A DNA stretch of 34,584 nt, from contig JBJSXO010000355.1 in the NCBI GenBank assembly GCA_046086425.1, positions 1 through 34,584 of the forward strand, in the 5' to 3' direction. A program made the translations under genes and the position numbers. This DNA is from Actinomycetota bacterium (GTDB lineage: Bacteria; Actinomycetota; Acidimicrobiia; IMCC26256; PALSA-555). Of the stretch, positions 1 to 34,584 are shown piece after piece. Numbering within the stretch: the first letter of the stretch is position 1; each line of letters starts with the position of its first letter. A model generated the notes under the pieces. It ran no database searches. It saw only the letters and a program-made list of their open reading frames with translations, and was not told where the DNA came from.

Positions 1-2055
1 GATCGCGTAGTCCATGAGGTTCGCGGTGAGCGGGTTGCCGTCCTCGTCGTACACGATCTGCTCGTAGAGCGCCTGCGCGACGCCCTGCGCAATGCCCCCG
101 TGCTGCTGCCCGGCCACGATCAGCGGATTGAGGACACGGCCGCAGTCGTCGACCGCGACGTGGCGGACGAGCTCCACCGAACCGGTCTCCGTATCGACCT
201 CGACCACCGCGATGTGGGTGCCGAACGGGAACGTCGCCCCGTCCTGCTCGAAGTCGAGCGCGGCGAGCAGCGGGTCACCGTCCTCGATCGCGGCCTGGGC
301 GATGGCCGACCACTCGAGCGCCGACGTCGGCACCCCGGCCACCCCGAGCCCGCCCGTCTCCGACACCACGATGTCCTCGGGTGCCGCCTCGAGCAACCGG
401 GCCGCGATCGCCCGGGCCCGGTCCAGCACCGCGTCCGTGGCCTTGTCTACGGCGGAGCCGCCGAGCTGCAGCGACCGTGATCCGCCGGTGCCGCCACCGC
501 GCGGGATCAGCGCGGTGTCGGACTGCTCGAAGCGGATCCGCTCCATCGGGATGCCGAGCTTGTCGGACACGATCATGGCGAACGAGGTGGCGTGACCCTG
601 GCCGTGCGAGGACGTGCCCGCCCGCACGGTTGCGCTGCCGTCGGCGTGCACCTCCACGTACCCGTACTCGCTGGCGTTGCCGCCCCCGGTGATCTCGACG
701 TAGGCGGCGACGCCGATGCCCAGCTGAAGCCGGTCGCCGCGCTCACGCCGCGCCGCCTGCTCGGCGCGGAGTGCCGGGTAGTCGGCCACGCGCACGGCCT
801 CGTCGAGCGCGGCCTCGTAGTCACCACAGTCGTAGCCGGCCCCGGTGAGCGTGGTGAACGGGAAGTCTTCGGGCTGGAGGAAGTTGCGCCGACGCAGCTC
901 CACCGGGTCGATGCCGAGCTCGTAGGACGCCATCTCCATGATCCGCTCGAGGTAGGCCGCCGCCTCCGGCCGCCCCGCGCCGCGGTAGGCACCCATGGGT
1001 GTCGTGTTGGTGAGCGCAACCGCGACCTCAAAGGCGATCTTCGGCACGTGGTAGGTGCCCGTCGCCATCATGCGGGTGGTCGCCGCGGGCAGCATCCCCC
1101 CGAACCCCCCGTAGGCGCCCGCGTCGCCGACGATGCGGCAGCGCAGGCCCGTGATCATGCCCGCGCGGGTGAAGCCCATCTCGATGTACTGGACCTGGCC
1201 CCGGCCGTGGGGCATCGCGACCATGTTCTCCGAGCGGGTCTCGACCCACTTCACCGGACGCCCGAGCTTCATGGCTGCCGCCGCGACCACGTAGTGCTCC
1301 GCGCTGGCCGACCCCTTGGCGCCGAACGCGCCGCCCACGTCGGGCACCACGACCCGAACCCGGTCCTGCTCGAGCCCGAGCGCGCCGGCGATCTCTCCCC
1401 ACACCCGGTGGGGCATCTGCGTCGCCGGGTAGACGGTCACCACGTGACCCTGCCCGTCGTCGCCGGGCACCACCGCCACCGCTCCGCCTTCCATCGGCAC
1501 CGCGGCGACGCGCTGGTTCTCGATACGGGCCCGCACCACGACCTCGGCGTCGGCGAGGACGCCGTCGCCCTCCCCCTCGCGCCGGCCGATCGCGAGGTTC
1601 GAACCCATGGCCTCGATCTGCACCGGCGCGCCTGGCGCCAGCGCGGCCTCCATGTCGGTGACGGCCGGGAGCGCGTCGTAGTCGACGACGACGGCCTCGG
1701 CGGCGTCGACCGCGGCGGTACGGGACTCCGCGATCACCACGGCAACCGGGTCGCCGACGAACGCGACCTTGCCGTCGGCGAGGGGCTGGCGGGCTTCCGC
1801 GGGGTGGATGGGGAAGAAGACCCAGTACGGGGCCAGTCCGAGATCGGACGCGGTGTACACCGCCACTACGCCGGGCATCGCCTGCGCCTCACGGGTGTCG
1901 ACGGACACGATCCGGCCGTGCGCGACCGGGGACCGGACGAAGTGGGCGTGCAGCGCGCCCGGGAGGGGAAGGTCGTCGACGTAGCGGCCGCGGCCGGCGA
2001 GCAAGGCCGGGTCTTCGACCCGGGGGACGGCGTTGCCGAGCAGCGAACCGGTCAT
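1..2055 (-). CDS. Xanthine dehydrogenase-family molybdopterin-binding large subunit (form II CoxL/CutL-like); 3' end runs off the window
   Basis: Missing from the ORF track because it has no stop in the window. Hand translation from ATG 2055 gives MTGSLLGNAVPRVEDPALLAGRGRYVDDLPLPGALHAHFVRSPVAHGRI, the typical family N-terminus. Internal VGGAFGAK and the active-site loop AYRGAGRPEA (~961-990) are present. Confidence 0.9.
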   Translation of the reverse strand, partial: MTGSLLGNAVPRVEDPALLAGRGRYVDDLPLPGALHAHFVRSPVAHGRIVSVDTREAQAMPGVVAVYTASDLGLAPYWVFFPIHPAEARQPLADGKVAFVGDPVAVVIAESRTAAVDAAEAVVVDYDALPAVTDMEAALAPGAPVQIEAMGSNLAIGRREGEGDGVLADAEVVVRARIENQRVAAVPMEGGAVAVVPGDDGQGHVVTVYPATQMPHRVWGEIAGALGLEQDRVRVVVPDVGGAFGAKGSASAEHYVVAAAAMKLGRPVKWVETRSENMVAMPHGRGQVQYIEMGFTRAGMITGLRCRIVGDAGAYGGFGGMLPAATTRMMATGTYHVPKIAFEVAVALTNTTPMGAYRGAGRPEAAAYLERIMEMASYELGIDPVELRRRNFLQPEDFPFTTLTGAGYDCGDYEAALDEAVRVADYPALRAEQAARRERGDRLQLGIGVAAYVEITGGGNASEYGYVEVHADGSATVRAGTSSHGQGHATSFAMIVSDKLGIPMERIRFEQSDTALIPRGGGTGGSRSLQLGGSAVDKATDAVLDRARAIAARLLEAAPEDIVVSETGGLGVAGVPTSALEWSAIAQAAIEDGDPLLAALDFEQDGATFPFGTHIAVVEVDTETGSVELVRHVAVDDCGRVLNPLIVAGQQHGGIAQGVAQALYEQIVYDEDGNPLTANLMDYAI

Positions 2056-5477: not shown

Positions 5478-5819
5478 ATGGACATCGAGCAGTTCTACGA
5501 CGCCGATCCCCGACGGCGTGCGTCCGAGGAGGTCGCCTTCGGGCACGAGTGGACCGACGCCGACGGCGGCCGTTACGAGGTCATGTGGGTGGCCGACACC
5601 GGCGAGGTCTACGCGATGTTCGAGCCCGTGGAGCCGATGGCCTCCGACGGGATCGGCGACATCTTTCCCCAGCACATGCCGACCGAGGCCGTGACCGTCG
5701 AGGTGCTCGGCGTTGTCGCCGACCGGGCGACCATCGACGCCGCGCTCGCCGGGTGGGCCGACGTCATGCCCCAGCCCGGCAGCGTCGCCTGGGTGCGCGA
5801 GCGCGTCGCCGGCGCCTGA
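5478..5819 (+). CDS. Hypothetical acidic protein (113 aa)
   Basis: MDIEQFYDADPRRRASEEVAFGHEW... has protein-like composition, and TAGGCT lies 7 nt upstream of the ATG. Confidence 0.75.
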   Translation: MDIEQFYDADPRRRASEEVAFGHEWTDADGGRYEVMWVADTGEVYAMFEPVEPMASDGIGDIFPQHMPTEAVTVEVLGVVADRATIDAALAGWADVMPQPGSVAWVRERVAGA

Positions 5820-16871: not shown

Positions 16872-18061
16872 CCAGCGGTCACGACGGCGTCCGGGTCGCG
16901 GTGGGCCTGACCCGGCGGGCCGGCGGGCGGGTGCGGCGGACCGCCACGGTGACCTCACCGGCGCTGGGCGCCCCGGACCTGTGGGTCGAGGTCGACGAGG
17001 CCCACGCCGCCGAGGTCACGGACCGGGCCGACCCGTTCCTGCTCCTCACGCTCACACTGGCCATGCGGGAGGGCCGGGACCTCACGGTCACCGGGGCCCC
17101 GGTCGACGGGGAGCTGCTGCGCCGCCTGGTCGAGTTCCAGCGCATCTGGCACGCCTGGTTCGACCTGACGCCGGTGGAGGTCCACGCCGAGGCGAGCACC
17201 ACCCGCGGCGACCGCGACGCTGCGGTCGTCGCGTTCTCGGGGGGCGCGGACTCTGCGTTCAGCGCGTGGTCCCACACGGGCGGTCGCGGCCGGCAACCGC
17301 TACGGGGCGCGATGATGATCCACGGGATGGACGTCCCACTGTCGGACCCCGAGGGCTTCGCCCGGGCGATGGGCCGCGCTCGCCGGATGACCGACAGCCT
17401 GGACCTCGACCTCACCGTGGTGTCCACCAACGCGTGGACGCTGCCCGTGCCGATCAGGCAGTACACGGGGATGGGGGTGGCCGCGGCCCTCCACGTCCTC
17501 GGGGGCCGCTACGGGGCGGGCCTGATCCCCTCCACCGCGACCTACCGCGGTCTCGTCGTGCCGCTCAACAGCAGCCCGGTCAGCGACTGGCTGCTCGGGG
17601 GTGACGGATTCGCCATCGTCCACGACGGCGCGGCCGCGAACCGGTTCGAGAAGCTCACGGCCCTCTGCGCCTGGCCCGAGGCCATGGAGTCCCTCCGCGT
17701 CTGCCTCGTCGACCCGCGCCACGACCGCAACTGCGGCACCTGCCACAAGTGCATGATGACCCTCGCCGCCTTCCGGGTGCTCGGCGTCGACGCGCCGTGC
17801 TTCGACGCCGTGCCCTCGGCTGCGCAGTTCACCGACTGGGCCCGGCGCTGGCCGAGTGGCCGGTACCACCGGCAGGAGGGCCTGGTGCTGGTCGACGCGG
17901 CCCGGGAGCGCGGGGTGGACGAGCCCTGGGTGCGGGCGTTGCGCAACCGGATCCGGGTCGCGCAGCTCAAGGACGGCGTGCGCGCCGCGTGGCCCGGTCT
18001 GGCCGACGGCGTCGCGTCGGCCCATCGGCGGGTGCGGGCAATGGGCTCCCCCCGGGGCTGA
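16868..18061 (+). CDS. QueC-like PP-loop (adenine nucleotide alpha-hydrolase) protein with Cys-rich Zn site
   Basis: GTGA overlap with the ACAD stop; FSGGADS PP-loop; LRVC-x8-CGTCHKC; 397 aa with an N-terminal extension not present in canonical QueC. Confidence 0.75.
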   Translation: MTSGHDGVRVAVGLTRRAGGRVRRTATVTSPALGAPDLWVEVDEAHAAEVTDRADPFLLLTLTLAMREGRDLTVTGAPVDGELLRRLVEFQRIWHAWFDLTPVEVHAEASTTRGDRDAAVVAFSGGADSAFSAWSHTGGRGRQPLRGAMMIHGMDVPLSDPEGFARAMGRARRMTDSLDLDLTVVSTNAWTLPVPIRQYTGMGVAAALHVLGGRYGAGLIPSTATYRGLVVPLNSSPVSDWLLGGDGFAIVHDGAAANRFEKLTALCAWPEAMESLRVCLVDPRHDRNCGTCHKCMMTLAAFRVLGVDAPCFDAVPSAAQFTDWARRWPSGRYHRQEGLVLVDAARERGVDEPWVRALRNRIRVAQLKDGVRAAWPGLADGVASAHRRVRAMGSPRG

Positions 18062-20615
18062 CCCGACCACCCGCGCCCGCTCGGCGCAGGCACTCGTCGA
18101 GCCGGGCCGCGAGCACGTGCACGTGGGGCTCACCGATCATCGAGTCGTGGTCGCCCGGCACCTCGATGCACTCGATCCCCGCGGTCGCCACCCGGGCCCA
18201 CCCCAGGTCGGCCGATCCGGCCGTGCGGCGGACGGGCTCGGCGGAGAACACCGTCACCAGCGCAGGTGCGGGCCCGGGGGTGAACCCCCGCTCACGGGCG
18301 AACGCGGCCGCCCAGTCCAGGACCGCTCCGGTCCCGGGGAGGTGCTCGACCGGCCGGGGCGGGTTCCGCCCGAAGAGCTGGCGGACCCGCCACGCCACGA
18401 TGCTCGGGCCCCGGCGACTGCACAGCTTGCGCACCCGGTACCAGAGGGAGTGCCGCTGCGCCCACCGCGCCCGCACCAGATCGGGGTGGATGGCGTCGGC
18501 GATGCCGACGAACTCGACCGCGTGACCCTCGGCGGCGAGCCGGCACGCCGTCTCGTACGCCACCATCGCACCGAGCGAGTGCCCGAACAGGCGGTACGGA
18601 CCGTCGGGGGTCACCTCCCGCACCAGACGCGCGCAGGTCGTGGCGATCTCCTCGATCGAGCCGGCTGCGTCCGCGGGCCCGTGCATCGACGGCATCCACA
18701 CCCCGAAGACCGGCTGGTCCCGGCCCAGGGTCGCCGCGAGGTGGCGGAGCGTCACCACCGAGCCGGCCCGCATCACGCAGAAGAGCGGCGGCCGGGTTCC
18801 GTCGGGCTGCACCGGGACCACGAACGACGCCGACGGGTCCGCCGGCTCGGCCCGCAGCAGCGCCGCCATCCGGCGCACGGTCGCGCCGTCGAAGAACACG
18901 GTGGCCGGCAGCGGCCGGCCGAACGCCCGCTCGAGGTCGAGGAGCAGCTCGGTCGCGTGGAGCGAGTCACCCCCGAGATCGAAGAAGTCGGCGTCGATGC
19001 TCGGGAGCTCGTCGTCACCGAGCACCCGCTGCCAGATCGCGGCGATCTCCCGCTCGAGGTCGTCGGCGGGGGCGGCGCCCGGAGCCGCGCGCGTCGACGC
19101 GGTGAACCCGAGCCGGTCGGCGAGACCCGTCCGGTCGAGCTTGCCGGTCGCGCCCCGCGGGATCTCGTCGACGGCGACCACGCGTCGCGGCACCTTGTAG
19201 GGCGCGAGCCGCTCGGCCGCGTACCGGCGCAGCTGCGGTGCGGTGACGGTGGCGTTCGCCTCCAGTACGACCGCTGCGCCGACCTCCTCCCCCAACCGCG
19301 GATGGGGCACCGCGAACGCCACTGCGTGCTTCACCTGGGGATGGGTCAGCAGCACGTCGTCGATCGCGCGCGGGGCCACCTTCTCGCCGCCTCGGTTGAT
19401 GATCTCCTTGAGGCGACCGGTGAGCGTGACGACGCCGTCGGCGTCGACGAGCCCCTGGTCGCCAGTCCGGAACCAGCCGTCCTGGAACGCCGCCGCCGTG
19501 GCCTCGGGCGCGTCGAGGTACTGCGTCGCGACCGACGGCCCCCGGATCGCCAACTCCCCGACCGCACCCGGGGTGAGAACGCGCCCGTCCTCACCGAGGG
19601 CCACGACCTCGCAGCCGACCGCGCGGCCCACCGACCCTGGCGTGCGCACACCGGGTGGGCGGGCGTTGCTCGCGATCTGGTGCGCGGCCTCGGTCATCCC
19701 GTAGGCCTCGATCACCGGCACCCCGAGCACCCGCTCGAGCTCCTCCATCAGTCTCGCGGGCAACGGGGCCGACGAGGAGCGGACGAAGGTGAGCGACGAC
19801 CGGATCGGTCGATCCGCGGTTGCGCGCGGACGGCTGACGTCGAGCATCGCCTGGTGGATGGTGGGCACCGCGGTGTACCAGGTCGGTGACATCGTGTCGA
19901 TCCACTCCCACACCGACGCCGCGTCGAATCCCGGTGCGCAGATCACGCTGCCGCCCTGGCTCAGCGGCGCGAGCAGTCCGGCCACGAGGCCGTGGATATG
20001 GAACAGCGGCATTACGTCGAGACACCGGTCCCGGGGCGTGAGCCCGAGTGCGGCGGCCACGTTGGCGGCCGAGGCCACGAGCGCGTCCTCGCACAACGGT
20101 ACGAGCTTCGGGCGGCTCGTGGTCCCCGAGGTGAAGAGCAGGAGCGCAGCGTCACCCCGGTCACGCGATGGCGCAGGGGCCGGCGCGTCGTCGGGCACGA
20201 CCAGGTCGAAGGCCCCGGCCCCCGCACCGGGAACCAGCTCGAGCACCGGGATGCGCAGCGCCGTCGCCGCGTCGCGAGCGGCCGTGTCGTGACCCTGCTG
20301 GACGATCACGGCGCGCGCCCCCAGGGCCTCGAGATCACGCGCGTGCTCCGCCTGGGGTCGGTCGGTCGCGAGGGGGGCGCACACTGCAGCCGCCGTCACG
20401 CCGAGGAACGCCACCGCGAGGTCGGCCCCGTTGGGCAGGGCCAGCGCAACCGGCGCGTCGGGCCCCAGACCGGCGGCGCCGAGGCGGTCCCCCACCCCCA
20501 CCACCTGATCGAACAGCTCGCGGTGCGTCGCGTCGCGACGTCCCGGCGCCAGGAGCGCAGGTTGGTCACCGGACGACGTCGCGCCGGCGCGCAGCAACTC
20601 GAGGAGCGACGCCAT
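17967..20615 (-). CDS. NRPS-like A-T-TE enzyme (acyl-CoA-ligase-type adenylation domain + carrier protein + thioesterase)
   Basis: A domain: FTSGTTSRPK, MPLFHIHG, EAYGMTE, FRTGD, GRLKEIINRGGEK, PRGATGKL. Carrier: FFDLGGDSL. TE: FGHSLG and VPGDHDSM. ATG 20615; 882 aa. Confidence 0.9.
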   Translation of the reverse strand: MASLLELLRAGATSSGDQPALLAPGRRDATHRELFDQVVGVGDRLGAAGLGPDAPVALALPNGADLAVAFLGVTAAAVCAPLATDRPQAEHARDLEALGARAVIVQQGHDTAARDAATALRIPVLELVPGAGAGAFDLVVPDDAPAPAPSRDRGDAALLLFTSGTTSRPKLVPLCEDALVASAANVAAALGLTPRDRCLDVMPLFHIHGLVAGLLAPLSQGGSVICAPGFDAASVWEWIDTMSPTWYTAVPTIHQAMLDVSRPRATADRPIRSSLTFVRSSSAPLPARLMEELERVLGVPVIEAYGMTEAAHQIASNARPPGVRTPGSVGRAVGCEVVALGEDGRVLTPGAVGELAIRGPSVATQYLDAPEATAAAFQDGWFRTGDQGLVDADGVVTLTGRLKEIINRGGEKVAPRAIDDVLLTHPQVKHAVAFAVPHPRLGEEVGAAVVLEANATVTAPQLRRYAAERLAPYKVPRRVVAVDEIPRGATGKLDRTGLADRLGFTASTRAAPGAAPADDLEREIAAIWQRVLGDDELPSIDADFFDLGGDSLHATELLLDLERAFGRPLPATVFFDGATVRRMAALLRAEPADPSASFVVPVQPDGTRPPLFCVMRAGSVVTLRHLAATLGRDQPVFGVWMPSMHGPADAAGSIEEIATTCARLVREVTPDGPYRLFGHSLGAMVAYETACRLAAEGHAVEFVGIADAIHPDLVRARWAQRHSLWYRVRKLCSRRGPSIVAWRVRQLFGRNPPRPVEHLPGTGAVLDWAAAFARERGFTPGPAPALVTVFSAEPVRRTAGSADLGWARVATAGIECIEVPGDHDSMIGEPHVHVLAARLDECLRRAGAGGRVSPGGSPLPAPADGPTRRRRPDRATRRARRP

Positions 20616-20625
20616 CGGGAGGAGT

Positions 20626-21606
20626 CTACGAACGGGTCCGGAGACGGCGGCGCAGATCCTCGAGCCGCCCGGTCGCGTCCCCCACTGCTGCGGCCGGGTC
20701 GGCGCCGTGGCGCAAGCGCCACGCCGGGAGCCGGGCCAGCGCGCCGCATACGCCGAACAGGTCGGGACGGACATCGGCGTCCACGAGCGCGAGGCTGGCC
20801 CCGAGCAGCTCGCGCATCACGTCGGGACCGGGCAGCGGGGTGACCCCCGGGCCGTCGGCCGAGCCACCCGAGGTGACGGCGACCGCGACCACCGGGCGCT
20901 CCCCGGAGGCGAGCGTCCCGGGCGGGAGCTCGACGCGCTGGCGCAGGTCCTCGGGCACGCCCCGGCCCCCGGCGATCGACCCGGCGACCACGTCGGCTGC
21001 GACCGCCACGGGTCGGGGTACGCCGCGCGCGAGCACGCGGTCGTCCCGACGCTCGAGCAGCACCGCGTCGTCGGCGAGCACGGGCCAGCCGAGCAGGTGC
21101 GCAGCGTACGCAAGTGTCGACTTCCCCGTCCCCGTGCCGCCCACCACGAGCAGCACTGCGTCGTCGACGACCAGCGCCGCACCGTGGAGCAGGTGGCGCC
21201 CCCGCCGGGCGAGCACGTGGGTGAGGCAGACCAGCGCGACGAACCGGAACTCCCGAGCGAGGCCGGGCGCGTCACCCCCCACCACGATGGCGTGCGGCGT
21301 GCACCGCGCGGTGAGCCCGGCGGAGCTGCGGACCGCGAGCTCCCCCGGGCCCGTCCACCAGAGGTCGACGTAGTCGAGGGCACGATCGGGGTCACGGTCC
21401 GGCACCGCAACCGCCGCCGCGTCGAAGCGAAGGTGGCACGCCGGCGCGCCGGCCACAGTGGCTGCGTGACGGAAGAGCGACGCCCCCGCGTCGGCCCGCA
21501 CCCCGTCGGCGGCACCGAGCCCGACGGGGACACCGCCGACCTCCACCACGGTGCCGGCGCGTACGTCGGCCGCGTCGACCTCCGCGACGGAGGGCGGTCC
21601 GCTCAC
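20626..21606 (-). CDS. HPr kinase-like P-loop kinase (RiPP/lasso-cluster type)
   Basis: LLHGAAL...VGGTGTGKSTLA...VLADDAVLL. GTG 21606 overlaps the upstream stop (GTGA); 326 aa. Confidence 0.85.
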   Translation of the reverse strand: MSGPPSVAEVDAADVRAGTVVEVGGVPVGLGAADGVRADAGASLFRHAATVAGAPACHLRFDAAAVAVPDRDPDRALDYVDLWWTGPGELAVRSSAGLTARCTPHAIVVGGDAPGLAREFRFVALVCLTHVLARRGRHLLHGAALVVDDAVLLVVGGTGTGKSTLAYAAHLLGWPVLADDAVLLERRDDRVLARGVPRPVAVAADVVAGSIAGGRGVPEDLRQRVELPPGTLASGERPVVAVAVTSGGSADGPGVTPLPGPDVMRELLGASLALVDADVRPDLFGVCGALARLPAWRLRHGADPAAAVGDATGRLEDLRRRLRTRS

Positions 21607-23159
21607 CGGCGCGCCCCCGCACCGAGACGCCGGGCCAGCCGGACGGCCCCGGCCACGGTCGTCCGGGGAACCCGCTGCACCGCCCCGGCGGCGGGACCCC
21701 AGCGCACATACGGTCGCGACGGGGAGACGGCCGTCACCCGGCCGATGAGCGCCGACGGCGCGACCGGCGGGTCGGCGCGCACGCAGGTATCCCCCTGGAA
21801 CCGGTGCCGGGCGCCTACCGCGCCCCGGTGCCGGTGCACCACGATCTCTCCCTGCGGGCCGCAGAACGCCCACACTTCTCCGCGCGCCGGTCCGGTCGCC
21901 CGGGCCTCGATCCGCACGCGGGTGCCGCTCGGGAGCGACCAGCCCATCGACCGGCCTGACACGTCCAGCCACAGCGGCTCCTGCTCGGCCCGGGTCCGGA
22001 GGAGTCGCGCGGTGGCGTCGGCGTCGCAGTGCGGCGCGGGCCTCGGGTCGCCGGTGATCCGTGCCCGCAACGCAGCACGCCGCCGGTGCATCGTGCGGAC
22101 CCTCCCGCGCAGCAGGCGCACCGGATAGGGCCCGGGCAGGTCGGCGTACCAGACCGCGACCGCGGCCGGCGGCGGGACCGGGACTCGCCTGGTGGCGCCG
22201 ATCGCGTCGCGGAGCCGACCCCGCACGAGGAAGGGCAGCGCCTCCTGGCGGCGCGAGCGGGCCGTGCCCGCACTACCGAGCAGGGTCACGCGCTCGGGCC
22301 AGACGGCTCGCCACACCCGCGCGCGTGGCCCCGAGGGGACCGGTCCCGCGGGTCCGCTGAGACCGAGCGCGGCGGTGACCCGTGCCCGCGCGCCGGCCAC
22401 GATGATGTCGAGCCCCTCGGCGCGCGTGTAGCGATCGACGAACCCCCAGTCGATCTCCTCGCGCGCGAGGACGCGCGCGACGTCGGCGTAGCCGAGGAGC
22501 GCGGGGAAGCTGTCCTTGTTCATGTGCACGAGGAAGTGGACGAGCGCAACCTCGGGGTCGAGCACCCGCACCGAGGACCCATCCGGCAACTCGTGCCCAC
22601 GGGTCCGCTCCCACACCAGGTCGGGCCGACGCGCCGGGAACCCGAGCTTGTAGAGGTCGAGGTGGAGGTCGACCGGCACCCCGTCGACCCGTGCGCCCAC
22701 GGACTGCAGCACGTTGACGCGGGCCAGGGCACCGGCGTCGGTCCCGAGCGGATGGCCCGGTGCGAGCACGGCGAGGATCTCGTCGAGGCGGCGGGCCGCG
22801 CCCGGCTCGAGCAGGACGTCGACGTCGGTGCACGGCCGTTCCCCCCTGCGCCGGTACCACCGGGCCTCGGCGGTGACCCCCTTGATCGCAGCGACCTCGA
22901 CCCCGATCGCCGCAAGGTCGTCGCGCACCCGCACCAGGGCCGCCTCGAGCCGGCCGTGGCGGTGGCGGACCGCGGCGTCGAGGCCTGCGAGCCGCACGCG
23001 CGCGGGGGCGTCGGGCGCGTGCTCGCGCACCCAGCTCCACAGCAGGCCCGTCATCCCGTGGCCGTTCGCGGCGTCGACGAGGCCGTCGTCGCCGTGCGGG
23101 AACACGCCGGGCGCGCGACCGGCCGCCAGATCCAGGAGCGCCGGATGGGGTCGGGTCAC
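21603..23159 (-). CDS. Nucleotidyltransferase (NTP_transf_5-like) fused to a C-terminal S24/S26 signal-peptidase-like domain
   Basis: N-terminal part: AIKGV...R.CTDVDVLL, VDLH, PEVALVHFLVH. C-terminal part (~22020-21603): VSGRSMGW...GEVWAF...VVHR...FQGD...DPPV...LIGRV. Confidence 0.82.
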   Translation of the reverse strand: MTRPHPALLDLAAGRAPGVFPHGDDGLVDAANGHGMTGLLWSWVREHAPDAPARVRLAGLDAAVRHRHGRLEAALVRVRDDLAAIGVEVAAIKGVTAEARWYRRRGERPCTDVDVLLEPGAARRLDEILAVLAPGHPLGTDAGALARVNVLQSVGARVDGVPVDLHLDLYKLGFPARRPDLVWERTRGHELPDGSSVRVLDPEVALVHFLVHMNKDSFPALLGYADVARVLAREEIDWGFVDRYTRAEGLDIIVAGARARVTAALGLSGPAGPVPSGPRARVWRAVWPERVTLLGSAGTARSRRQEALPFLVRGRLRDAIGATRRVPVPPPAAVAVWYADLPGPYPVRLLRGRVRTMHRRRAALRARITGDPRPAPHCDADATARLLRTRAEQEPLWLDVSGRSMGWSLPSGTRVRIEARATGPARGEVWAFCGPQGEIVVHRHRGAVGARHRFQGDTCVRADPPVAPSALIGRVTAVSPSRPYVRWGPAAGAVQRVPRTTVAGAVRLARRLGAGARR

Positions 23160-23180: not shown

Positions 23181-23459
23181 TCAGCCGGCGATGCCGTCGC
23201 CCGGCACGACGAGCCCCGCGGCCTCGACCTCGTCGAGGAACGCGGCGATGTCCCGGGCCACGGTCTCGACGGGGACGTCGTCGAACCGGTCGGCGAGATC
23301 CGCCGCCAGCTCCGCTGGCCCCCGCTGCCCGTCGAGGGCCAGCCAGACCAGGGTGCCGACCTCGTTCAGGGTGAGCAGCTCCTCGCCCCGGGGGTCGACG
23401 AGCACCGCCTGACCGTCGACGACCTCGGAGACGACTCGGGGCGACCGCTGCCACGCCAT
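23181..23459 (-). CDS. PqqD-family RiPP recognition element (RRE)
   Basis: 92 aa: VVDGQAVLVD...LLTLNEVGTLVWLALDG...LADRFDDVPVETVARDIAAFLDEVEAAGLV, the characteristic stand-alone PqqD pattern. Confidence 0.92.
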   Translation of the reverse strand: MAWQRSPRVVSEVVDGQAVLVDPRGEELLTLNEVGTLVWLALDGQRGPAELAADLADRFDDVPVETVARDIAAFLDEVEAAGLVVPGDGIAG

Positions 23460-23465
23460 CGGGTC

Positions 23466-23471
23466 AGGTTA
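23466..23471 (-). promoter_or_regulatory. Putative -10 box (TAACCT) of a leaderless pqqD-operon transcript
   Basis: TANNNT hexamer 6 nt upstream of ATG 23459, with no SD. Confidence 0.55.
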
Positions 23472-23526
23472 GGCCCCGGGATGCGGGCCCCGGGACGAGA
23501 ACCGCCGGTCCGGTGCCGCCCGGACC

Positions 23527-23607
23527 TATCATTCGGGGCCGGCGTCGAGGACCCCGAAGCGCCGGGGACCGTCGAAGACCATCACCACCCACGAAGACGA
23601 CTGGGAG
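23527..23607 (+). promoter_or_regulatory. Putative -10 (TATCAT, 23527-23532) and SD (GGGAG, 23603-23607) for the small peptide gene
   Basis: AT-rich hexamer in otherwise very GC-rich DNA; GGGAG lies 5 nt before ATG 23613. Confidence 0.5.
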
Positions 23608-23612
23608 CAGCA

Positions 23613-23699
23613 ATGCGCTACGAGCCACCGACCATCGTGCGCCGGGACCGGCTCGCCGGCCTTCTCATCGCCAAGAGCGACATCCCCGCCCCCACCTGA
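23613..23699 (+). CDS. Putative RiPP precursor peptide, 28 aa: MRYEPPTIVRRDRLAGLLIAKSDIPAPT
   Basis: SD-preceded ATG, an N-terminal YxxP(xI) RRE-binding motif, and a position divergent from the PqqD gene. The ORF track shows it only as the tail of shadow ORF 22029..23699. Confidence 0.75.
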   Translation: MRYEPPTIVRRDRLAGLLIAKSDIPAPT

Positions 23700-23729
23700 G
23701 CTCGATCATCTGAGCTCGATCATCTGAGC
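23696..23729 (+). repeat. Tandem repeat of CTGAGCTCGATCAT (14 bp x 2.4)
   Basis: Exact copies at 23696-23709 and 23710-23723, plus CTGAGC at 23724-23729; overlaps the precursor stop codon. Confidence 0.9.
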
Positions 23730-23947: not shown

Positions 23948-26900
23948 ATGACGACATCGCCCGCGCCGACCGTGCCGGCGTGGCAATTCGAGCTCGCGGT
24001 GGAGGACGATGCCGACGGCAACGCCTCGCCCGAGCAGCACTCCCTCCTCGAGGCCGACCGGCCCCGCTGGCAGGCGACCCTCAACACGTTGCTGCGGGCC
24101 GCCGAGCAGCACCTCGCCGCCGCCCGCCGACTCCAGGGCCCCGAGCGAAGCCAGGTCCTCGCCGATGCCGAGGCCGACCGCCAGCGCCTCCTCCTCGCGT
24201 GGTCCCGGCTGACCGGCATCGAGATCGAGGTCACGGCCCCCCGCGCCGGCGCGTCGGGCCCGGCCGAGCGCGAACCCGACGCCGACAGCCTCGCGCCCGC
24301 CGTCGTCGCGCTCCAGGTCTCGTGGGAGCCGGGACGGGTGGTCGCCTGGGCCGGCGGCCCCCGCTGCGAGCCGGGCGCGGCCGCCGCGGTTCTCGCGATG
24401 CTCGCGGAGGCCGAAGCCCCCGAGGCGCCGTGGACCCCCCACGCAGGCGTGACGCTCCCCGACGGCGGGCGCGCCGAGGCGTTCAGCGCGCCCGTGGGTG
24501 AGGTGCTCGGCTGGCTGGTGGCCGCCGGCGCCGGCCAGGTCGACGCCGAGGTCGGGGCCAGCGTCCGGTGGCTCGGCCGGGTCGCGATCTGGGCGGTCGA
24601 GCTCACCGCCCGCGGCGCCATGGTGCCGCTCCTCCGCCAGCGGCGGAAACGCAACGGGAGCAGCCGCAGCACCTCCGCGTCGTACTCCGTGCGCTGGACG
24701 CCGGCGCTCGTCGACGCCGACCGACTGGCCGACGTGGTCGCCGCGATGCCCGGCAGCGTGCGCGCCCTCGACACCCGCGTCGACGCCCGCGCGCTGACCC
24801 GCTCGGCCCTCACCGGGATGGTCGACGCCATCTGCCGGGACAGCGCGCGTCGCATCGAGGTGCCCGCACCCCCGCCCGTGGTGCGCTCGGCCACCGACGT
24901 CACCGAAGCCTTCCTCGCCCGCCTCGACGGCAGCGCGTTCGACGCACCGATGCGGGTCGCCGACGACCTCGTCACCAAGGCCGAGCGTTGGGCGCGCGGC
25001 GTGACGCGTGAGCAGCGTCCCCTGCTCGTCCGGCTCGAGGCCCCGCCCGCCGGTGACCCGGCCTGGGACCTCGCCGTGTTCGCCCCGAGCCCCGACGGCA
25101 CCCTCGTCCCGATCGAGCGGGCCATCGTCGACGCGCGCAGCGAGCGTGCGGAGCTCGAGGACGAGATCGGGCGCATCGAGCGCATGGTCCCGGCGCTCGC
25201 CCGCCCGAGCACACGCCGCGGGCACACCGTCGTCGACCAGGCGGAGGCGTGGGAGCTGATGGTCGACATCGGGCCGCGTCTGGCGGCCGCGGGGTTCGCC
25301 GTGCAGGTCCCGGCGCTCAGCCTGCGCCGGCCCGCGCCGTCGCTGCGGGTGTTCGCCGAGCAGACCGAGACCGCGGTCGGCGCGAGCCAGCTCGCCGACG
25401 TCCGGTGGTCGGCAGTGTTCGACGACGTCGAGCTCACCGCCGCCGACATCGCCCGGCTCGCCCGGGAGGCCCGGCCGCTGATCCACTCGCGTGGCCGCTG
25501 GGTCGCGCTCGACAAGGCCGACCTCGACGCCGCGGCCGCGGCCCTCGCGGAGCGGGCCCAGACCACCCAGCTCTCCGGGGCCGACATGCTGCGCCTCGCG
25601 CTCGGCCTCGACGGATCGCCGCTGGCCGGCGGCATCACGGTGGCGGGCGGCGGCTGGGCGGCGGAGCTGCTCGCGGCGGCGGCCGCGGTGGACGGCACCC
25701 CTGCGACCGAGCCCGACGGCTTCGTCGGGGAGCTGCGCACCTACCAGGCCGACGCGCTGGCGTGGCTGGGCTTCCTCGAGTCGGCCGGCATCGGCGGCTG
25801 CCTCGCGCTCGACATGGGGCTCGGCAAGACCCCCACGATGCTCGCGCACCTCACCGAGGCCGCCGACCGGGGGCCGGCCCTGGTGATCGCGCCTCCTGCG
25901 GTCGTCGGCAACTGGGCGTCCGAGGCCCACCAGTTCGTCCCCGGCCTGCGGGTCAAGGTCCACCACGGGGCCAACCGGGCCGACGCCGACGAGATCGCCG
26001 CCGAGGTGGCGGGCGCCGACGTCCTCCTCACCACCTACGGCACCGCGGTGCGCGACATCGAGGCCATCGAGAAGGTGGACTGGGCGACGCTCGTGCTCGA
26101 CGAGGCCCAGGCGATCAAGAACGTCGCCAGCGACACCGCCCAGCAGCTCCGGCGGATCCCGGCCCGCGTGCGCGTCGCGCTCACCGGCACGCCCATCGAG
26201 AACGGCCTCGGTGATCTCTGGGCCATCCTCGACTTCACCAATCCGGGGCTCGTCGGCCCCCGGCCCCAGTTCGTCGCCAGCCTGTCGGGCGACGAGTCGT
26301 CCAAGGCCCAGTCCGCGGAGCACGCGCTCCGCGCGCTCAACGGCATCCTGGTCTTCCGGCGGACCAAGGCCGAGCCGGCGATCGCGGCCGAGCTGCCCGA
26401 CCGCATCGACGAGCTCGACCACTGCTCGATGACACCGGAGCAGATCGGCCTCTACCAGGCCGTGCTCGACAAGCTCGTGCTCACCACCGATCTTCCCGAC
26501 GGCGAGGAGCCCCGCAAGGGCCAGATCCTCGCCGCGATCACCGCGCTCAAGCAGATCTGCAACCATCCGGCGGCGTACCAGGATGACGACGGGCCGCTCG
26601 GGGGCCGGTCCGGAAAGCTCGCGCGCCTCGAGGAGATCGTGGACATCGTCTACGCGGCGGGCGAGCGCGTCCTGATCTTCACGCACTTCGCCGAGTGGGG
26701 CATGAAGCTCGCCACCCATCTCACCGAGCACACCGGCACGCCGGTGGAGTGCTACCACGGCGGCCTCTCCCGGACCGCGCGCGACAAGATCATCGAGGAC
26801 TTCCAAAACGGTGAAGGCCCGGGCGCGCTGGTGCTGTCGCTGAAGGCCGGCGGGACGGGCCTGAACCTCACCGCCGCGAACCACGTCGTGCTCTACGACC

Positions 26901-27202
26901 GGTGGTGGAACCCCGCGGTGGAGGACCAGGCGCGCGACCGCGCGTGGCGCATCGGCCAGACCCACACCGTCATCTGCCACCGGCTGGTGTGCCCGGGCAC
27001 CGTCGACGAGCGGGTCGAGGAGGTCGTCGAGGGCAAGCGTCGCATCGCCGATCTCGTCCTGCCCAAGTCGAGCTCGCTCGCCGACCTCGACCAGGCGCAG
27101 CTGAGCATGGCCCTGGGCATCCGCCCCGACGCCCTGCTCACCGAGGACGTCGCCGATCTCGGCGCCACCCCGCCCGATCCCGGCGAGGAGGCCGCCGCAT
27201 GA
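23948..27202 (+). CDS. SNF2-family (DEAD/DEAH-box) helicase/ATPase
   Basis: LRTYQ, LDMGLGKT, VLDEAQAIKN, ALTGTPIENGL, LKQICNHP, SLKAGGTGLNLT and DRWWNPAVEDQARDRAWRIGQ. Confidence 0.95.
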   Translation: MTTSPAPTVPAWQFELAVEDDADGNASPEQHSLLEADRPRWQATLNTLLRAAEQHLAAARRLQGPERSQVLADAEADRQRLLLAWSRLTGIEIEVTAPRAGASGPAEREPDADSLAPAVVALQVSWEPGRVVAWAGGPRCEPGAAAAVLAMLAEAEAPEAPWTPHAGVTLPDGGRAEAFSAPVGEVLGWLVAAGAGQVDAEVGASVRWLGRVAIWAVELTARGAMVPLLRQRRKRNGSSRSTSASYSVRWTPALVDADRLADVVAAMPGSVRALDTRVDARALTRSALTGMVDAICRDSARRIEVPAPPPVVRSATDVTEAFLARLDGSAFDAPMRVADDLVTKAERWARGVTREQRPLLVRLEAPPAGDPAWDLAVFAPSPDGTLVPIERAIVDARSERAELEDEIGRIERMVPALARPSTRRGHTVVDQAEAWELMVDIGPRLAAAGFAVQVPALSLRRPAPSLRVFAEQTETAVGASQLADVRWSAVFDDVELTAADIARLAREARPLIHSRGRWVALDKADLDAAAAALAERAQTTQLSGADMLRLALGLDGSPLAGGITVAGGGWAAELLAAAAAVDGTPATEPDGFVGELRTYQADALAWLGFLESAGIGGCLALDMGLGKTPTMLAHLTEAADRGPALVIAPPAVVGNWASEAHQFVPGLRVKVHHGANRADADEIAAEVAGADVLLTTYGTAVRDIEAIEKVDWATLVLDEAQAIKNVASDTAQQLRRIPARVRVALTGTPIENGLGDLWAILDFTNPGLVGPRPQFVASLSGDESSKAQSAEHALRALNGILVFRRTKAEPAIAAELPDRIDELDHCSMTPEQIGLYQAVLDKLVLTTDLPDGEEPRKGQILAAITALKQICNHPAAYQDDDGPLGGRSGKLARLEEIVDIVYAAGERVLIFTHFAEWGMKLATHLTEHTGTPVECYHGGLSRTARDKIIEDFQNGEGPGALVLSLKAGGTGLNLTAANHVVLYDRWWNPAVEDQARDRAWRIGQTHTVICHRLVCPGTVDERVEEVVEGKRRIADLVLPKSSSLADLDQAQLSMALGIRPDALLTEDVADLGATPPDPGEEAAA

Positions 27203-27540: not shown

Positions 27541-29184
27541 TCAACCGTCGTCCGACACCATGCCTGCGTCGACCCGCAGCACGCGGTCGAAGGCCACGGT
27601 GTCGAGCAGCCGGCGGTCGTGGGTGACCAGCAGGACCGTGCCGGGGAACTCCGCCAGCGCCTGCTCGAGCTGCTCGATCGCCGGCAGGTCGAGGTGGTTC
27701 GTCGGCTCGTCGAGGACCAGCGTGTTGACCCCGGTGGTCTGGAGGAGCGCGAGCGCAGCACGGGTGCGCTCCCCCGGCGAGAGCATCGCCGCGGGCCGCT
27801 CGACGTGCGCGGCGCCGAGCCCGAACTTGGCCAGGACGCTGCGGGCGTCGCTGATCGTCACCCCCGTCGCCGCGATGAACGCGTCGACCAGCGCGGTCGT
27901 CCCGGCAAACGTGGCCCGGGCCTGGTCGATCTCGCCGACCACCACGCCGGGGCCGAGCCACTGCGTCCCCGCGTGCAGTTCGACCCGGCCGAGCAGGGCA
28001 TCGAGCAACGTGGACTTCCCGGCACCGTTGGGACCGACGATGCCCACCGTCTCCCCCCAGCCGATCTCGAGGGTCACCGGGCCGAGCGAGAAGCGGTCGC
28101 GCGCCACCACCGCCTGGTCGAGGCGCGCCACGACCGCGCCGGCGCGGGGGGCGCACGCAATGGAGAACTGCAGCTCCCACTCCTCCCACGGCTTCTCTAC
28201 GACCTCGAGCCGCTCGAGCGCGCGCTCGCTGCGCCGGGCTCGCGACGCAAGTTGCTCGGTCTGCTCCTTGCGGAAGCCCCGCCCGGCACGATCGGCGTCC
28301 TTCGGGCTCGCTTTGCCCTTGGCGACCCCACGGTGTGCCCACTCCCGCTCGCGCTGGGCCCGGGCGGTGAGCGCGCCACGCTGGCCCTGGTACTCCTCGT
28401 ACGCGGCCTCGGCACGCCGTCGGGACACGTCGCGCTCACGCAGGTACGCCGAGTACCCACCCGCGAACGTCGTGATCGTGTGGTCGTGCGCGTCCAGATC
28501 GGCGACGTCGGTGACGACCCGGTCGAGGAACGCGCGGTCATGGCTCACCACGACCAACGGTCCCGTGAACCCGAGCGCGAAGCGCTCGAGCTGGTCGAGA
28601 CCGTCGAAGTCGAGGTCGTTCGTCGGCTCGTCGAGCAACAGGACGTCGAAGCGCGCCAGCAAGATGGCGGCCAGCCCGACCCGCGCGGCCTGACCTCCCG
28701 AGAGCGTGGGCATCGTGGCGTCGAGCAGCGAGCCGGCCGCGAGCCCGAGCGTCTGCACCACCTCACCGGCACGAGCGTTGAAGTCGGCCGCCCCGAGCGC
28801 CAGCCACCGTTCCAGCGCCGCGCTGTAACGGTCGTCGGCACCCTCGGCACCGTCGGCGAGCGCAGCCGTCGCCGCGTCGAGCGCGTCCTGCGCGTCGGCG
28901 ACACCGGTCCGGCGCGCAAGGTAGGCCATGACCGACTCACCCGCCCGCCGCTCCGGCTCCTGGCGCAGCTCACCCACGGTCGCCGTCGGCGGCGCCGTCT
29001 CCACCGACCCGGACTCGGGGTGCAGCCGGCCCGCGAGAACGCCGAGGAGCGTCGACTTCCCCGAGCCGTTGGGCCCGAGGACGCCGAGACGCTGGCCGGG
29101 CGGGACCACGAGGTCCACGTCCTCGAGCACGGGGTGGGGGCCGTAGGCGAAGGTGACGCCCCGGGCTCGCAGCGTCGCCGGCAT
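27541..29184 (-). CDS. ABC-F family ATP-binding protein
   Basis: Two ABC domains (GPNGSGKST/LSGGQ/LLDEPTND and GPNGAGKST/LSPGE/VLDEPTNH), an interdomain linker, and no TM segments. Confidence 0.93.
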   Translation of the reverse strand: MPATLRARGVTFAYGPHPVLEDVDLVVPPGQRLGVLGPNGSGKSTLLGVLAGRLHPESGSVETAPPTATVGELRQEPERRAGESVMAYLARRTGVADAQDALDAATAALADGAEGADDRYSAALERWLALGAADFNARAGEVVQTLGLAAGSLLDATMPTLSGGQAARVGLAAILLARFDVLLLDEPTNDLDFDGLDQLERFALGFTGPLVVVSHDRAFLDRVVTDVADLDAHDHTITTFAGGYSAYLRERDVSRRRAEAAYEEYQGQRGALTARAQREREWAHRGVAKGKASPKDADRAGRGFRKEQTEQLASRARRSERALERLEVVEKPWEEWELQFSIACAPRAGAVVARLDQAVVARDRFSLGPVTLEIGWGETVGIVGPNGAGKSTLLDALLGRVELHAGTQWLGPGVVVGEIDQARATFAGTTALVDAFIAATGVTISDARSVLAKFGLGAAHVERPAAMLSPGERTRAALALLQTTGVNTLVLDEPTNHLDLPAIEQLEQALAEFPGTVLLVTHDRRLLDTVAFDRVLRVDAGMVSDDG

Positions 29185-33383: not shown

Positions 33384-34584
33384 TCAGGCTCGCCCATGGG
33401 CCGGCGCCGCTTCCAGTCGGCCCCGTAGGTCGTCGAGGAGCCCGGGGCTCGCCTTCATCGCGGTGCGGGTCGCCCCGCTGAGCAGGCCCAGGCGCAGCCG
33501 CAGGGCCGCGTCGACCAGGGCGTCCCGGCCCACCACCGCCTCGGCCACCGCCACCGCCCGGTCGGGGCCCACCACCGTGGTGGACGAGGCGAGGAGCTCG
33601 GCGACGTCGGTGCGCAGCAGGAGGTCGGAGGCCGCGAGCTCGCTGAACCCGAAGTCGATGATCCAGGGCTGGCCGTCGTCCCCGAGGAACACGTTGGCCA
33701 GGCGCAGGTCGCGGTGGGCGACCCGGTGCCTGCGCATGTGCGCGACCTGCTCCCAGATCCCGCCGAGCGCGGCATCGGTCATGTCTGCGGGCGGCACGCG
33801 GTCGAACGACTTGCCCGCGATCTGCTCGTAGGCGAGCACGAACCCGTTGGGCTCGGCCTGGGCGAAGGCGACGAAGCGCGGCGTGCACACCCCGAGGTCG
33901 CGCACGGCGAGGGCCACGAGCGCCTCGTGCTCGACGGTGCGCCGGAGCGACGCGTCGGCCTTCTCGTCGCCGAGGTCGCGGGGCATGAGCCGTCGGTAGG
34001 TCCGGAACATGAGGTCGGCGCTGCGCTCGTCGGCACCGAGGGCCTTCACGAACAGCGGTGTGCCGTCGGCGGCGGTGCCGAAGTAGGGCGAGGATCCCCG
34101 GGCGTCGACGTCGGCCCGGCGCAGGTCGCGGAGCGGGACCCCCACCGCCGCGAGCCCCGCCGAGATCGCCTCGATCGACGGGCGCATCGACGGCGCCCCG
34201 AGGACGACCACCGCGAGCGCGCCACCGAACCATCCGCAGAGGAGCGCGATCACCACGTCGAACTCGATCGGCGACCCGACGAACCACACCACAGCGACCA
34301 ACACGACCAGGGTCCACGCGAGCCGGCGCCAGCGTCGCGACTCCCACGGCGCGGCCGCCGTCACGATCGCCGTGACCACCGCGACACTGCTCGGCAGGTC
34401 CTCGGGGTCGACCGGGGTGAGCGACCGGTTCAGGTCGGTGACGCGCACCCGAGCACCATCGGCCAGCGGCGCCAGCACGAGGAACAGCACCACCGCGACC
34501 GCGACGGCCACCACGATCCCGAGGAGGAGCCGCCACTGCCGCTGTCCCAGCGCCACGGCCAGCCCGGCGACGACGAGCACGAGC
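33384..34584 (-). CDS. Membrane protein with a kinase-like domain; 5' end outside the window
   Basis: Several TM helices, then DARGSSPY, LFVKALG, EHEAL, AHRDLRLANV and WIIDFGFSE. Confidence 0.75.
   Translation of the reverse strand, partial: LVLVVAGLAVALGQRQWRLLLGIVVAVAVAVVLFLVLAPLADGARVRVTDLNRSLTPVDPEDLPSSVAVVTAIVTAAAPWESRRWRRLAWTLVVLVAVVWFVGSPIEFDVVIALLCGWFGGALAVVVLGAPSMRPSIEAISAGLAAVGVPLRDLRRADVDARGSSPYFGTAADGTPLFVKALGADERSADLMFRTYRRLMPRDLGDEKADASLRRTVEHEALVALAVRDLGVCTPRFVAFAQAEPNGFVLAYEQIAGKSFDRVPPADMTDAALGGIWEQVAHMRRHRVAHRDLRLANVFLGDDGQPWIIDFGFSELAASDLLLRTDVAELLASSTTVVGPDRAVAVAEAVVGRDALVDAALRLRLGLLSGATRTAMKASPGLLDDLRGRLEAAPAHGRA

Follow-up and report, generated by a model that had tools for sequence, protein, structure and literature searches.

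Linear polyphosphorylated peptides (LPPs) have been described from the LppA/B/K/S/N/D system of Paenibacillus alginolyticus (Popov et al., Nat Commun 2026;17:6633, PMC13381572). As given in the main text of that report, the core genes encode a discrete recognition element for ribosomally synthesised and post-translationally modified peptides (RiPP recognition element, RRE), LppB, an HprK-like kinase, LppK, an uncharacterised nucleoside triphosphate (NTP) transferase, LppN, and an MsbA-like pump. The precursors, of 35-200 amino acids (aa), carry the motif YxxPxVLxHQxIxFETxxS at the N-terminus and vary at the C-terminus. LppK places several phosphates on core Ser3, and LppS cleaves after T-1 only when LppB presents the peptide. 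LppN had no effect in a heterologous host, the final product of the LPP pathway is described as unknown, and LPPs are called restricted to Bacillota (PMC13381572). Here we analyse a 28-aa open reading frame (ORF) at 23613..23699 on the plus strand of contig JBJSXO010000355.1 of an Actinomycetota bacterium of the class Acidimicrobiia (assembly GCA_046086425.1); the whole stretch of DNA analysed, 34,584 nucleotides (nt) long, is called the window. In our view, the probable product of the ORF is the precursor peptide from which a linear RiPP of the LPP type, phosphorylated on serine, is made. This assignment draws on the gene set, the conservation of the peptide, the folds of the encoded proteins, the conserved contact residues of the RRE and a complex model that passed its controls, all of them observed here.

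In the maturation route that we propose, a stand-alone PqqD-type RRE would bind the N-terminal Y3-x-x-P6-x-I8 of the peptide as an added beta-strand. The RRE would present the peptide to an HprK-like kinase for (poly)phosphorylation of Ser22, and to a Ser/His/Asp signal-peptidase-like domain, which would remove the leader by a cut past L18, in the G-L-L block. This would leave a phosphopeptide of roughly 10 residues, IAKS(P)DIPAPT, to which an NTP_transf_5 domain, and possibly also an enzyme with adenylation, carrier and thioesterase domains (A-T-TE), would add a further group of a nature that is not predictable. Ser22 phosphorylation, the cut site and the order of the steps are inferred from the Paenibacillus LPP system. 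A positional match to the LPP motif divides the plus-strand gene into a predicted leader, M1-L18 (23613-23666), and a predicted core, I19-T28 or IAKSDIPAPT (23667-23696), with the predicted phospho-site at Ser22 (AGC, 23676-23678). On this analogy it is likely that Ser22 is the phosphorylated residue and that the G-L-L block is the leader end.

Coding evidence for the 28-codon gene

An earlier note on this DNA had proposed a 28-aa precursor with its own Shine-Dalgarno (SD) sequence and an upstream TATCAT box. Read directly from the sequence, the ORF starts with ATG at 23613-23615, ends with TGA at 23697-23699 and gives the product MRYEPPTIVRRDRLAGLLIAKSDIPAPT. It lies within a 488-bp gap between two divergent genes, one for the PqqD-type RRE (23181-23459, minus strand) and one for an SNF2 helicase (23948-27202, plus strand). 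Because the GC content of the window is 73%, many long spurious ORFs occur in it, and the frame of the precursor itself has no stop over 556 upstream codons, where it runs antisense to real genes. The GC content by codon position, which tells real genes from spurious frames in this window, was 0.66/0.55/0.90 for the precursor ORF, resembling that of real genes. When the gene was compared with a 28-aa homologue (L009) over 17 aligned codons, the differences at codon positions 1, 2 and 3 were 2, 4 and 10, respectively, and the family profile described below scored the ORF at E 4.2e-10 per genome. Judged by its sequence, its coding pattern and its family membership, the ORF is a real gene and not a chance frame, and the proposal of the earlier note holds in this respect.

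The SD-like sequence GGGAG is present at 23603-23607, 5 nt 5' of the ATG, and four of the five homologues with the start codon in view (the window, L018, L034 and L017, but not L009) have an SD-like sequence in front of them. The TATCAT hexamer, of the -10-like form TANNNT, stands at 23527-23532, about 80 nt 5' of the ATG, and TACGAT in L018 and TACCAT in L034 are found at a similar distance. A simple sigma-70 consensus scan yielded no promoter and no terminator, so that TATCAT is to be taken only as a -10-like hexamer; the box named in the earlier note is there, while a promoter function is not supported by the scan. No Rfam family matched between 23300 and 24100, and the RNA fold 3' of the stop was not unusual (z -1.33). 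From the last base before the stop, a perfect 14-bp tandem duplication, CTGAGCTCGATCAT, extends over 2.4 copies (23696-23729, plus strand), and its three TGAs fall in three different forward frames, closing all of them. A duplication of this type was not seen 3' of the homologues in L009 or L018. In one study, which may be the one from which the window comes, two public runs (X1, X2) gave contigs identical to the window throughout the ORF, the stop codon and the 14-bp duplication, and another study has a run that matches 23470-23642; these contigs show only the reproducibility of the DNA. Among the public runs listed as holding this DNA, none was an RNA run.

A peptide family built from repeated units

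A profile of the peptide unit was searched against a library of 1.84 billion protein cluster representatives. At E <= 1e-3 it matched 76 representatives, of which 37 reached 1e-10 and 11 reached 1e-30. The 76 proteins comprise 123 units, with one unit in 42 of them, two in 23, three in nine and four in two. Precursors are made of 28-50 aa per unit and of 1-4 tandem units. The unit consensus is [MV]-R-Y-E-R-P-x-I-V-R-R-E-x-I-A-G-L-L-x3-K-S-D, after which come 4-13 variable residues and, in 97 of the 123 units, an optional follower, S-D-V-x-x-K-x-N-I-V-P-V-x-W, whose C-terminal Trp is the end of the protein in 36 of the 76 family members. Tyr3 and Pro6 are invariant in the family alignment, and Ile8, Arg11 and the first Ser are at least 90% conserved. 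A Ser followed by Asp or Glu is present in 119 of the 123 units, and the Ser stands at +19..21 from the Tyr in 93 of 123, at +19 in the window peptide.

These patterns bear on several claims of the earlier note. It had seen an RRE-docking motif of the YxxPxL type in Y-E-P-P-T-I, in agreement with the invariance of Y3 and P6, the conservation of I8 (at least 90%) and the retention of N32, D70 and F74 in the RRE. Beyond this motif, Ser22 and Thr28 are indeed the only hydroxyl residues of the peptide, and either had been suggested as the modification site. Ser22 is the conserved Ser of the S[DE] pair; Thr28 is not conserved in the family, and for this reason the Thr28 alternative falls. Of the hydrophobic LAGLLIA stretch, proposed as an element of recognition or cleavage, LAGLL fits, as it stands where the leader ends in the published LPP motif (F-3 E-2 T-1). 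The precedent that had been invoked, phosphorylation of a C-terminal Ser in paeninodin, gives way to a closer one, namely LppK, which according to the main text of PMC13381572 modifies an internal Ser three residues past the leader cut.

Short forms of 28-33 aa, which stop 5-9 residues past the first S-D, include P0180-P0184, P0191, L009, L018 and the member on contig C150. Since such forms recur, the window peptide appears to be a normal short member of the family, not a wreck. Their ends coincide roughly with the start of the follower in the long forms (e.g. P0183 versus P0150), and for this reason the follower looks like a removable module. Pfam and NCBIfam assign no family to the window peptide and none to the long forms, and the family profile matched no PDB chain. 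In a second search, all 36 matches were unnamed or called 'hypothetical protein', one of them labelled Acidimicrobiia. Literature searches did not find this actinobacterial peptide family described, and a search for polyphosphorylated RiPPs returned PMC13381572 only, the supplements of which may already list members from outside Bacillota.

Predicted docking of the peptide to the RRE

The profile of the PqqD protein matched, among PDB chains, the lasso RRE TbiB1 (3.9e-13), LppB (9x8z_B, 3.4e-9) and TfuB1 (1.9e-7). Residues N32, D70, F74 and L83 of the window protein align with N33, D70, F74 and L83 of LppB; the numbering takes into account an 18-residue tag offset in the PDB chain, which was checked on T30, L32, N33, V35 and C39. 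As described in the main text of PMC13381572, the contact residues of LppB in 9x8z hold the kink at the Pro in place, form a hydrogen bond with the Tyr, flank the Pro on both sides and line the second pocket. N32, D70 and L83 are invariant across 12 RREs of the family.

A complex of the RRE and the 28-aa peptide, both supplied as alignments, was modelled along the lines suggested in the earlier note. The predicted complex scored 0.78 compared with 0.02 for the best control, a level reached by 58 of 80 solved complexes and by 2 of 110 mismatched pairs. Contact agreement between runs was at least 93%, with a predicted local distance difference test score (pLDDT) of the partner of at least 67. 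In the model, peptide residues 1-15 and 17 would contact RRE residues 25-35, 37-38, 58-62, 67, 70-71, 73-74, 77-78 and 81.

Gene set of the divergent operon

The operon divergent from the precursor gene is tightly packed on the minus strand in the order pqqD, nucleotidyltransferase (NTase)-peptidase fusion, HprK-like kinase and A-T-TE. The 92-aa product of pqqD (23181..23459) matches Pfam PqqD at 7.7e-18, above the cut-off, while its best NCBIfam match, lasso_PqqD_Strm (2.2e-10), is below the cut-off. No other gene of the PqqD family was found in the window's genome, G000 (one PF05402 match). A -10-like box, TAACCT (23466..23471, minus strand), ends 6 nt 5' of the pqqD ATG, and the block CAGGTTAGG directly upstream of the start is kept at window 23460-23473, L002 ~1140-1150 and L009 ~5680-5690. 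The spacing of this box suggests a leaderless pqqD transcript, which fits the remark in the earlier note that many neighbours of the ORF appear leaderless.

After 21 nt follows the gene for the NTase-peptidase fusion (21603..23159, minus strand, 518 aa), which joins a PF14907 domain to a domain of the S24/S26 fold. The N-terminal ~260 residues (about 22080-23159) match PF14907 NTP_transf_5 at 4.5e-24, above the cut-off, and the motif residues G94, D112, D114, D164, H166 and D168 are invariant in 23 homologues. The C-terminal ~160 residues (21606-22079) form a signal-peptidase-like domain, with S404, H442 and D457/D463 invariant; the motifs GxSM, VVHR and F-x-G-D do not vary in 23 fusion proteins and nine peptidase-domain sequences. 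Two homologues match Pfam Peptidase_S24 (PF00717; P0004 at 6.9e-6, P0009 at 2.5e-8), and stand-alone peptidase homologues in other genomes have TIGR02228 sigpep_I_arch as their best match (3.5e-6 and 2.1e-7, below the cut-off). The peptidase His falls at the position of the catalytic Lys of bacterial signal peptidase I in a weak alignment (4me8, E 0.6, the only PDB match). An AlphaFold2 model of the domain reached a pLDDT of 79.7, and Foldseek matched it to the C-terminal domain of LexA (4.7e-4), lambda cI, human SEC11 (7p2p, 1.7e-3), SipA and SpsB. In one homologue (P0001), NTase, peptidase and kinase are joined in a single protein of 839 aa. Many NTP_transf_5 homologues, including those of ~370-400 aa, have no peptidase domain, and two of them (P0103, P0107) are instead fused to a PqqD domain. 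The NTase thus occurs joined to RRE, peptidase and kinase in a number of different ways.

The kinase gene (20626..21606, minus strand, 326 aa) begins with a GTG that shares bases with the stop codon, TGA, of the fusion gene (GTGA). The protein has the Walker A motif GGTGTGKST of a P-loop kinase and matches TIGR04352 HprK_rel_A (7.1e-9) and Hpr_kinase_C (3.9e-4); its AlphaFold2 model (pLDDT 89.9) gave PEPCK (2.3e-8) and HprK/P (2.9e-7) as top Foldseek matches. An ORF at 20817-21533 on the same strand, which would encode an unknown 238-aa protein, was rejected as lying in the wrong frame, the real gene being the kinase in the frame 20626-21972. Two further kinase-like genes lie 10-20 kb off, at 33384-34580 and 2052-3437 (both minus strand), the one Bud32/Pkinase-like by weak matches, the other belonging to the APH phosphotransferase family; no link of either to the cluster was seen.

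The probable ATG of the A-T-TE gene (17967..20615, minus strand) is at 20615, 10 nt past the kinase stop, in the same operon. The enzyme combines FadD-like adenylation, carrier and thioesterase domains (Pfam AMP-binding, PP-binding and Thioesterase). Its gene follows the NTase-peptidase gene in L002, L004, L005, L009, L010 and L011, and stays with it in the genomes G002 and G004, though pqqD and kinase are elsewhere there. It adjoins the NTase-peptidase gene in six related loci and is tightly coupled in translation to the kinase gene in the window. A-T-TE may be a partner of the nucleotidyltransferase.

Peptides and enzyme genes in related genomes

The distribution of the family was followed in 401 genomes of the same class and in 400 other genomes of the phylum. 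In the class sample, the profile matched 12 genomes at E <= 0.01; three of these matches (L023, L025 and L026) were dropped as false positives because they are LuxR-type helix-turn-helix proteins, leaving nine. None of the 400 genomes of the phylum sample, which doubles as a negative control for the profile, matched at E <= 0.001, only the window's own genome doing so. With 76 representatives and 9 of 401 class genomes, the conservation check proposed in the earlier note turned out in favour of the ORF.

The same note had advised a search beside pqqD homologues, and peptides divergent from pqqD came to light in G001, G003 and L009. Six genomes of the same genus were searched by tblastn in the regions flanking their NTase gene, and two of them had matches: in G001, a 146-aa ORF of three tandem ~48-aa units, and in G003, a single unit at the same position. 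A profile of these units then found the 28-aa gene MRYERPKIVRRERIAALADISNSDVKSN in a metagenome-assembled genome labelled Acidimicrobiaceae (L009) and a weaker family member in L015. With the 28-aa peptide as query, tblastn found no homologue in the 1.5-kb NTase flanks of G002, G004, G005 and G007; the peptides of G002 and G004 are located elsewhere, adjoining the kinase.

Seven of the nine genomes with a family peptide have one at a distance of about 3 kb or less from an HprK-like, peptidase or PqqD gene, in differing arrangements. The peptide gene is divergent from pqqD in G000, G001 and L009 and divergent from the kinase gene in G002 and G004, while the gene order is kinase-peptide-peptidase-PqqD in G132, kinase-peptidase-peptide in G402 and PqqD-NTase-kinase-peptidase-peptide in L015. 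A full-length match to the peptidase domain was present in 14 of the 401 genomes, that is, in eight of the nine with a peptide versus six of the 392 without one; the Fisher value of this co-occurrence is only descriptive, because related genomes are not independent. All five peptide-positive genomes that were examined for a PqqD gene have one.

The window's genome, G000, is 82% complete and holds five family members. Besides the window gene, these are L041-L044, located at C198:1222-1350(+), C150:2526-2615(+), C98:3563-3643(-) and C347:5297-5374(-), of which the C198 member is a long form with the follower motif. The four lie far from any PqqD, kinase or peptidase gene and among unrelated genes, with nitroreductase/OYE, formyl transferase, epimerase and sulfatase genes as neighbours. 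The genome has one PqqD gene and one NTase/peptidase/kinase set, and the window peptide is the only family member adjoining it. The dispersed members together with the single enzyme set suggest that one set may serve several precursors.

A different group of small genes was observed in G333, where four of them are dispersed (L024, L031 at C4:217152-217533, L035 at C3:530715-530777 and L038 at C2:1181849-1181914). They share a common leader, KYEAPAIERREDVKGLL, and have a tail unlike that of the window family, containing Cys/Trp (HTQQGSWCPPKTF and similar); a full-length peptidase homologue is encoded on another contig of the same genome. These genes may represent a sister family with a different core.

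Comparison with known systems

Compared with the LPP system as presented in the main text of PMC13381572, the window operon corresponds to the LPP gene set minus the pump. Both have a discrete PqqD-type RRE plus an HprK-like kinase, an NTP transferase and a leader peptidase resembling archaeal-type Ser/His/Asp signal peptidases, and neither has a macrolactam cyclase or a B2 protease. The PF14907 NTase and LppN likely belong to the same family, the main text of the report giving no Pfam accession for LppN. The precursors share the N-terminal docking motif YxxPx[VI] and a conserved Ser a few residues past the leader end. Counted from the Tyr, the conserved offsets coincide at 0, 3, 5, 6, 8, 9, 11 and 13-15, where LPP precursors and the window family have, respectively, Y/Y at 0, P/P at 3, V/I at 5, L/V at 6, H/R at 8, Q/E at 9, I/I at 11 and F-E-T/G-L-L at 13-15. 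However, most residues of the leader differ, with RYERPxIVRRExIAGLL here versus YxxPxVLxHQxIxFET in LPP.

New relative to LPP are the phylum, the NTase-peptidase fusion, the operon-linked A-T-TE, the tandem cassette precursors with an S74-like follower and the five dispersed precursors. The window family is found in Actinomycetota, its named relatives being labelled Acidimicrobiia, Acidimicrobiaceae or 'actinobacterium', whereas LPPs are reported from Bacillota. The peptidase is fused here to the C-terminus of the NTase, in one homologue also to the kinase; an A-T-TE gene is part of the operon and no MsbA-like exporter is nearby; and units of leader, core and follower are repeated, with several precursors dispersed in the genome.

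With the pathways of paeninodin and pseudomycoidin, as described in PMC8498205, the locus shares an HPr-kinase homologue, a nucleotidyltransferase and a PqqD/B1 RRE as a set, a leader with a [Y/W]xxP motif and a kinase that acts on the linear precursor. Unlike in those systems, there is neither cyclase nor B2 protease here, the conserved Ser is internal instead of C-terminal, and a serine peptidase with a signal-peptidase fold is predicted to take off the leader. The likeness to PqqA and PqqD extends to the PqqD-fold chaperone and to the bound peptide with its lasso-like docking motif (PMC13381572, main text). In contrast to that system, no PqqB, PqqC or PqqE is encoded in the window, the peptide has no Glu-x3-Tyr core, and the PQQ_PqqD model scores below its cut-off.

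The follower resembles the beginning of a known domain. In the long forms, S-D-x-x-x-K-x-N-I-x-P-V aligns with the first residues of Peptidase_S74 (PF13884) in P0192, a metagenomic protein of 233 aa that carries two copies of a leader-like YEKPSLLRREKL segment, each with a full S74 domain after it (Pfam 2.9e-22; hhalign probability 95.5%, E 1.6e-8). Peptidase_S74 is the intramolecular chaperone and autoproteolytic domain of phage tail spikes, which we take to cleave just before the follower Ser, using a Ser-Lys pair five residues apart. In contrast to the whole domain, only ~14 of its residues occur in the window family and none in the window peptide. Pfam found no S74 match for the window peptide, the long members or the short follower, the whole domain being present only in P0192. 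P0192 may be an ancestor or a cousin of the follower motif.

Alternative explanations

Several points weigh against the assignment to the LPP type. Relative to the published motif, the predicted cut residues are G-L-L instead of F-E-T, the Ser at +19..21 from the Tyr lies 1-3 residues further than the +18 of LPP, and a 28-aa peptide is shorter than the 35-200 aa of LPP precursors. Homology to LppA is argued from motif positions and not from a score, because no PDB chain matched the family profile. The window's own peptidase domain reaches only E 0.18 with Pfam S24, and both kinase matches are below the curated cut-offs, partial and confined to the P-loop region. No MsbA-like or membrane ABC exporter was found among the ORFs scanned at 12147-34580, where the only nearby ABC protein (27541-29184) is of the ABC-F type, with two ABC_tran domains and ABC_tran_Xtn; directly upstream of the NTase in a more distant locus (NTase L012:590-2184), an ABC-2 exporter pair is encoded. 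In G002 and G004, different contigs carry the NTase-peptidase gene, the kinase gene with the peptides and pqqD, and linkage is therefore not universal. The complex model may have passed because the predictor had learned solved RRE-leader complexes; as such structures exist and the calibration set holds nothing as short as this peptide, the pass indicates likeness and not binding by this copy.

With these points in mind, it could be asked whether an RRE-bound precursor receives a different defining modification, with NTP_transf_5 nucleotidylylating or glycosylating it or A-T-TE acylating it, and with the kinase acting on another substrate or in priming. The NTase-peptidase gene adjoins A-T-TE in G002 and G004 even where kinase and pqqD are elsewhere, the NTase motif residues do not vary among 23 homologues and, in the main text of PMC13381572, deletion of LppN changed nothing in Paenibacillus and the final product is left unknown. 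We nevertheless regard this as unlikely: kinase genes are directly beside family peptides in G002, G004, G132, G402 and L015, the sole near-invariant residue beyond the docking motif is a Ser with Asp or Glu next to it, and an HprK-like kinase provides the primary modification in the LPP and paeninodin-type systems as published. There is little probability, in our estimate, that the ORF is a decayed copy, the remnant of a unit of roughly 45 aa truncated by the 14-bp duplication and no longer processed. The duplication begins exactly at the stop, relatives have longer units with the SDxxxKxNIxPVxW follower (97/123 units), and the window peptide is without the Lys that comes after SD[IV] in most other short forms. 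Yet forms of 28-33 aa recur independently (L009, L018, C150, P0180-P0184 and P0191), no remnant of a follower was found downstream in any frame, the third-position GC (0.90) and the SD are intact, and the gene is the sole family member beside the only enzyme set of its genome.

A lasso or PQQ-type precursor with its cyclase, or with PqqE/B/C, encoded elsewhere in the genome is scarcely credible. The YxxPx[LI] motif, the lasso-type model as best NCBIfam match of the PqqD protein (lasso_PqqD_Strm, below cut-off) and the incompleteness of the genome (82% complete) speak for it. Against it, the lasso core arrangement (Thr at -2; Gly, Ala, Ser or Cys at 1; Asp or Glu at 7-9; tail) is absent from the 28 residues, there being no Thr at -2, no ring of Gly/Ala1 with Asp/Glu7-9 and too few residues for a ring plus tail, and an E-x-x-x-Y PqqA core is equally missing. 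The Pfam results for the window ORFs contain no lasso cyclase or B2 protease, no gene resembling Asn synthase or transglutaminase was seen among the ORFs scanned, and PF13471 had 0 matches in G000, all of which agrees with the rejection of a lasso precursor in the earlier note; family peptides elsewhere adjoin kinase and peptidase genes and not cyclases. It is hardly tenable, either, that the frame is open by accident within GC-rich DNA, intergenic or 5' untranslated, and has no product. Long open stretches such as the 556 upstream codons of this frame are common in DNA of 73% GC, and the consensus scan gave neither promoter nor terminator; amino-acid conservation with divergence biased to the third position, the profile match (E 4.2e-10 per genome, against 0/400 control genomes) and the lack of an Rfam family in the region argue in the opposite direction.

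Significance of a probable second LPP-type branch

Taking the precursor of a linear phosphopeptide as the preferred reading, a more far-reaching scheme can be put forward tentatively, although we think it rather doubtful in its entirety. In this scheme, freshwater Acidimicrobiia would own a separate, cassette-built branch of phosphopeptide RiPPs, whose precursors string together as many as four units of leader, core and follower, every unit having an RRE docking site; the follower would be a relic of Peptidase_S74 that marks the C-terminal cut; one RRE/kinase/peptidase set would serve five scattered precursors; and the NTase-peptidase and A-T-TE would cooperate to give an acyl- or nucleotide-capped phosphopeptide, a type without precedent so far. 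If the follower marks the cut, long and short genes would give similar phosphopeptides of 9-16 residues. A-T-TE may then supply the 'missing partner' whose lack made LppN inactive in the work on Paenibacillus.

The first description of LPPs dates only from May 2026 and concerns Bacillota; its main text leaves their biological function, their final structure and the role of the NTase open. A second, distant branch of the LPP type would place independent constraints on these questions, among them the physical fusion of NTase and peptidase and the natural multi-unit precursors, while the co-transcribed A-T-TE may point to a missing co-substrate or partner. Cores of ~10 residues would be easy to analyse by mass spectrometry. 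For the hosts, which are abundant uncultured actinobacteria of lakes, outside Bacillota, a gene of 28 codons, under the size limit of most gene callers, would be the substrate gene of a four-gene operon.

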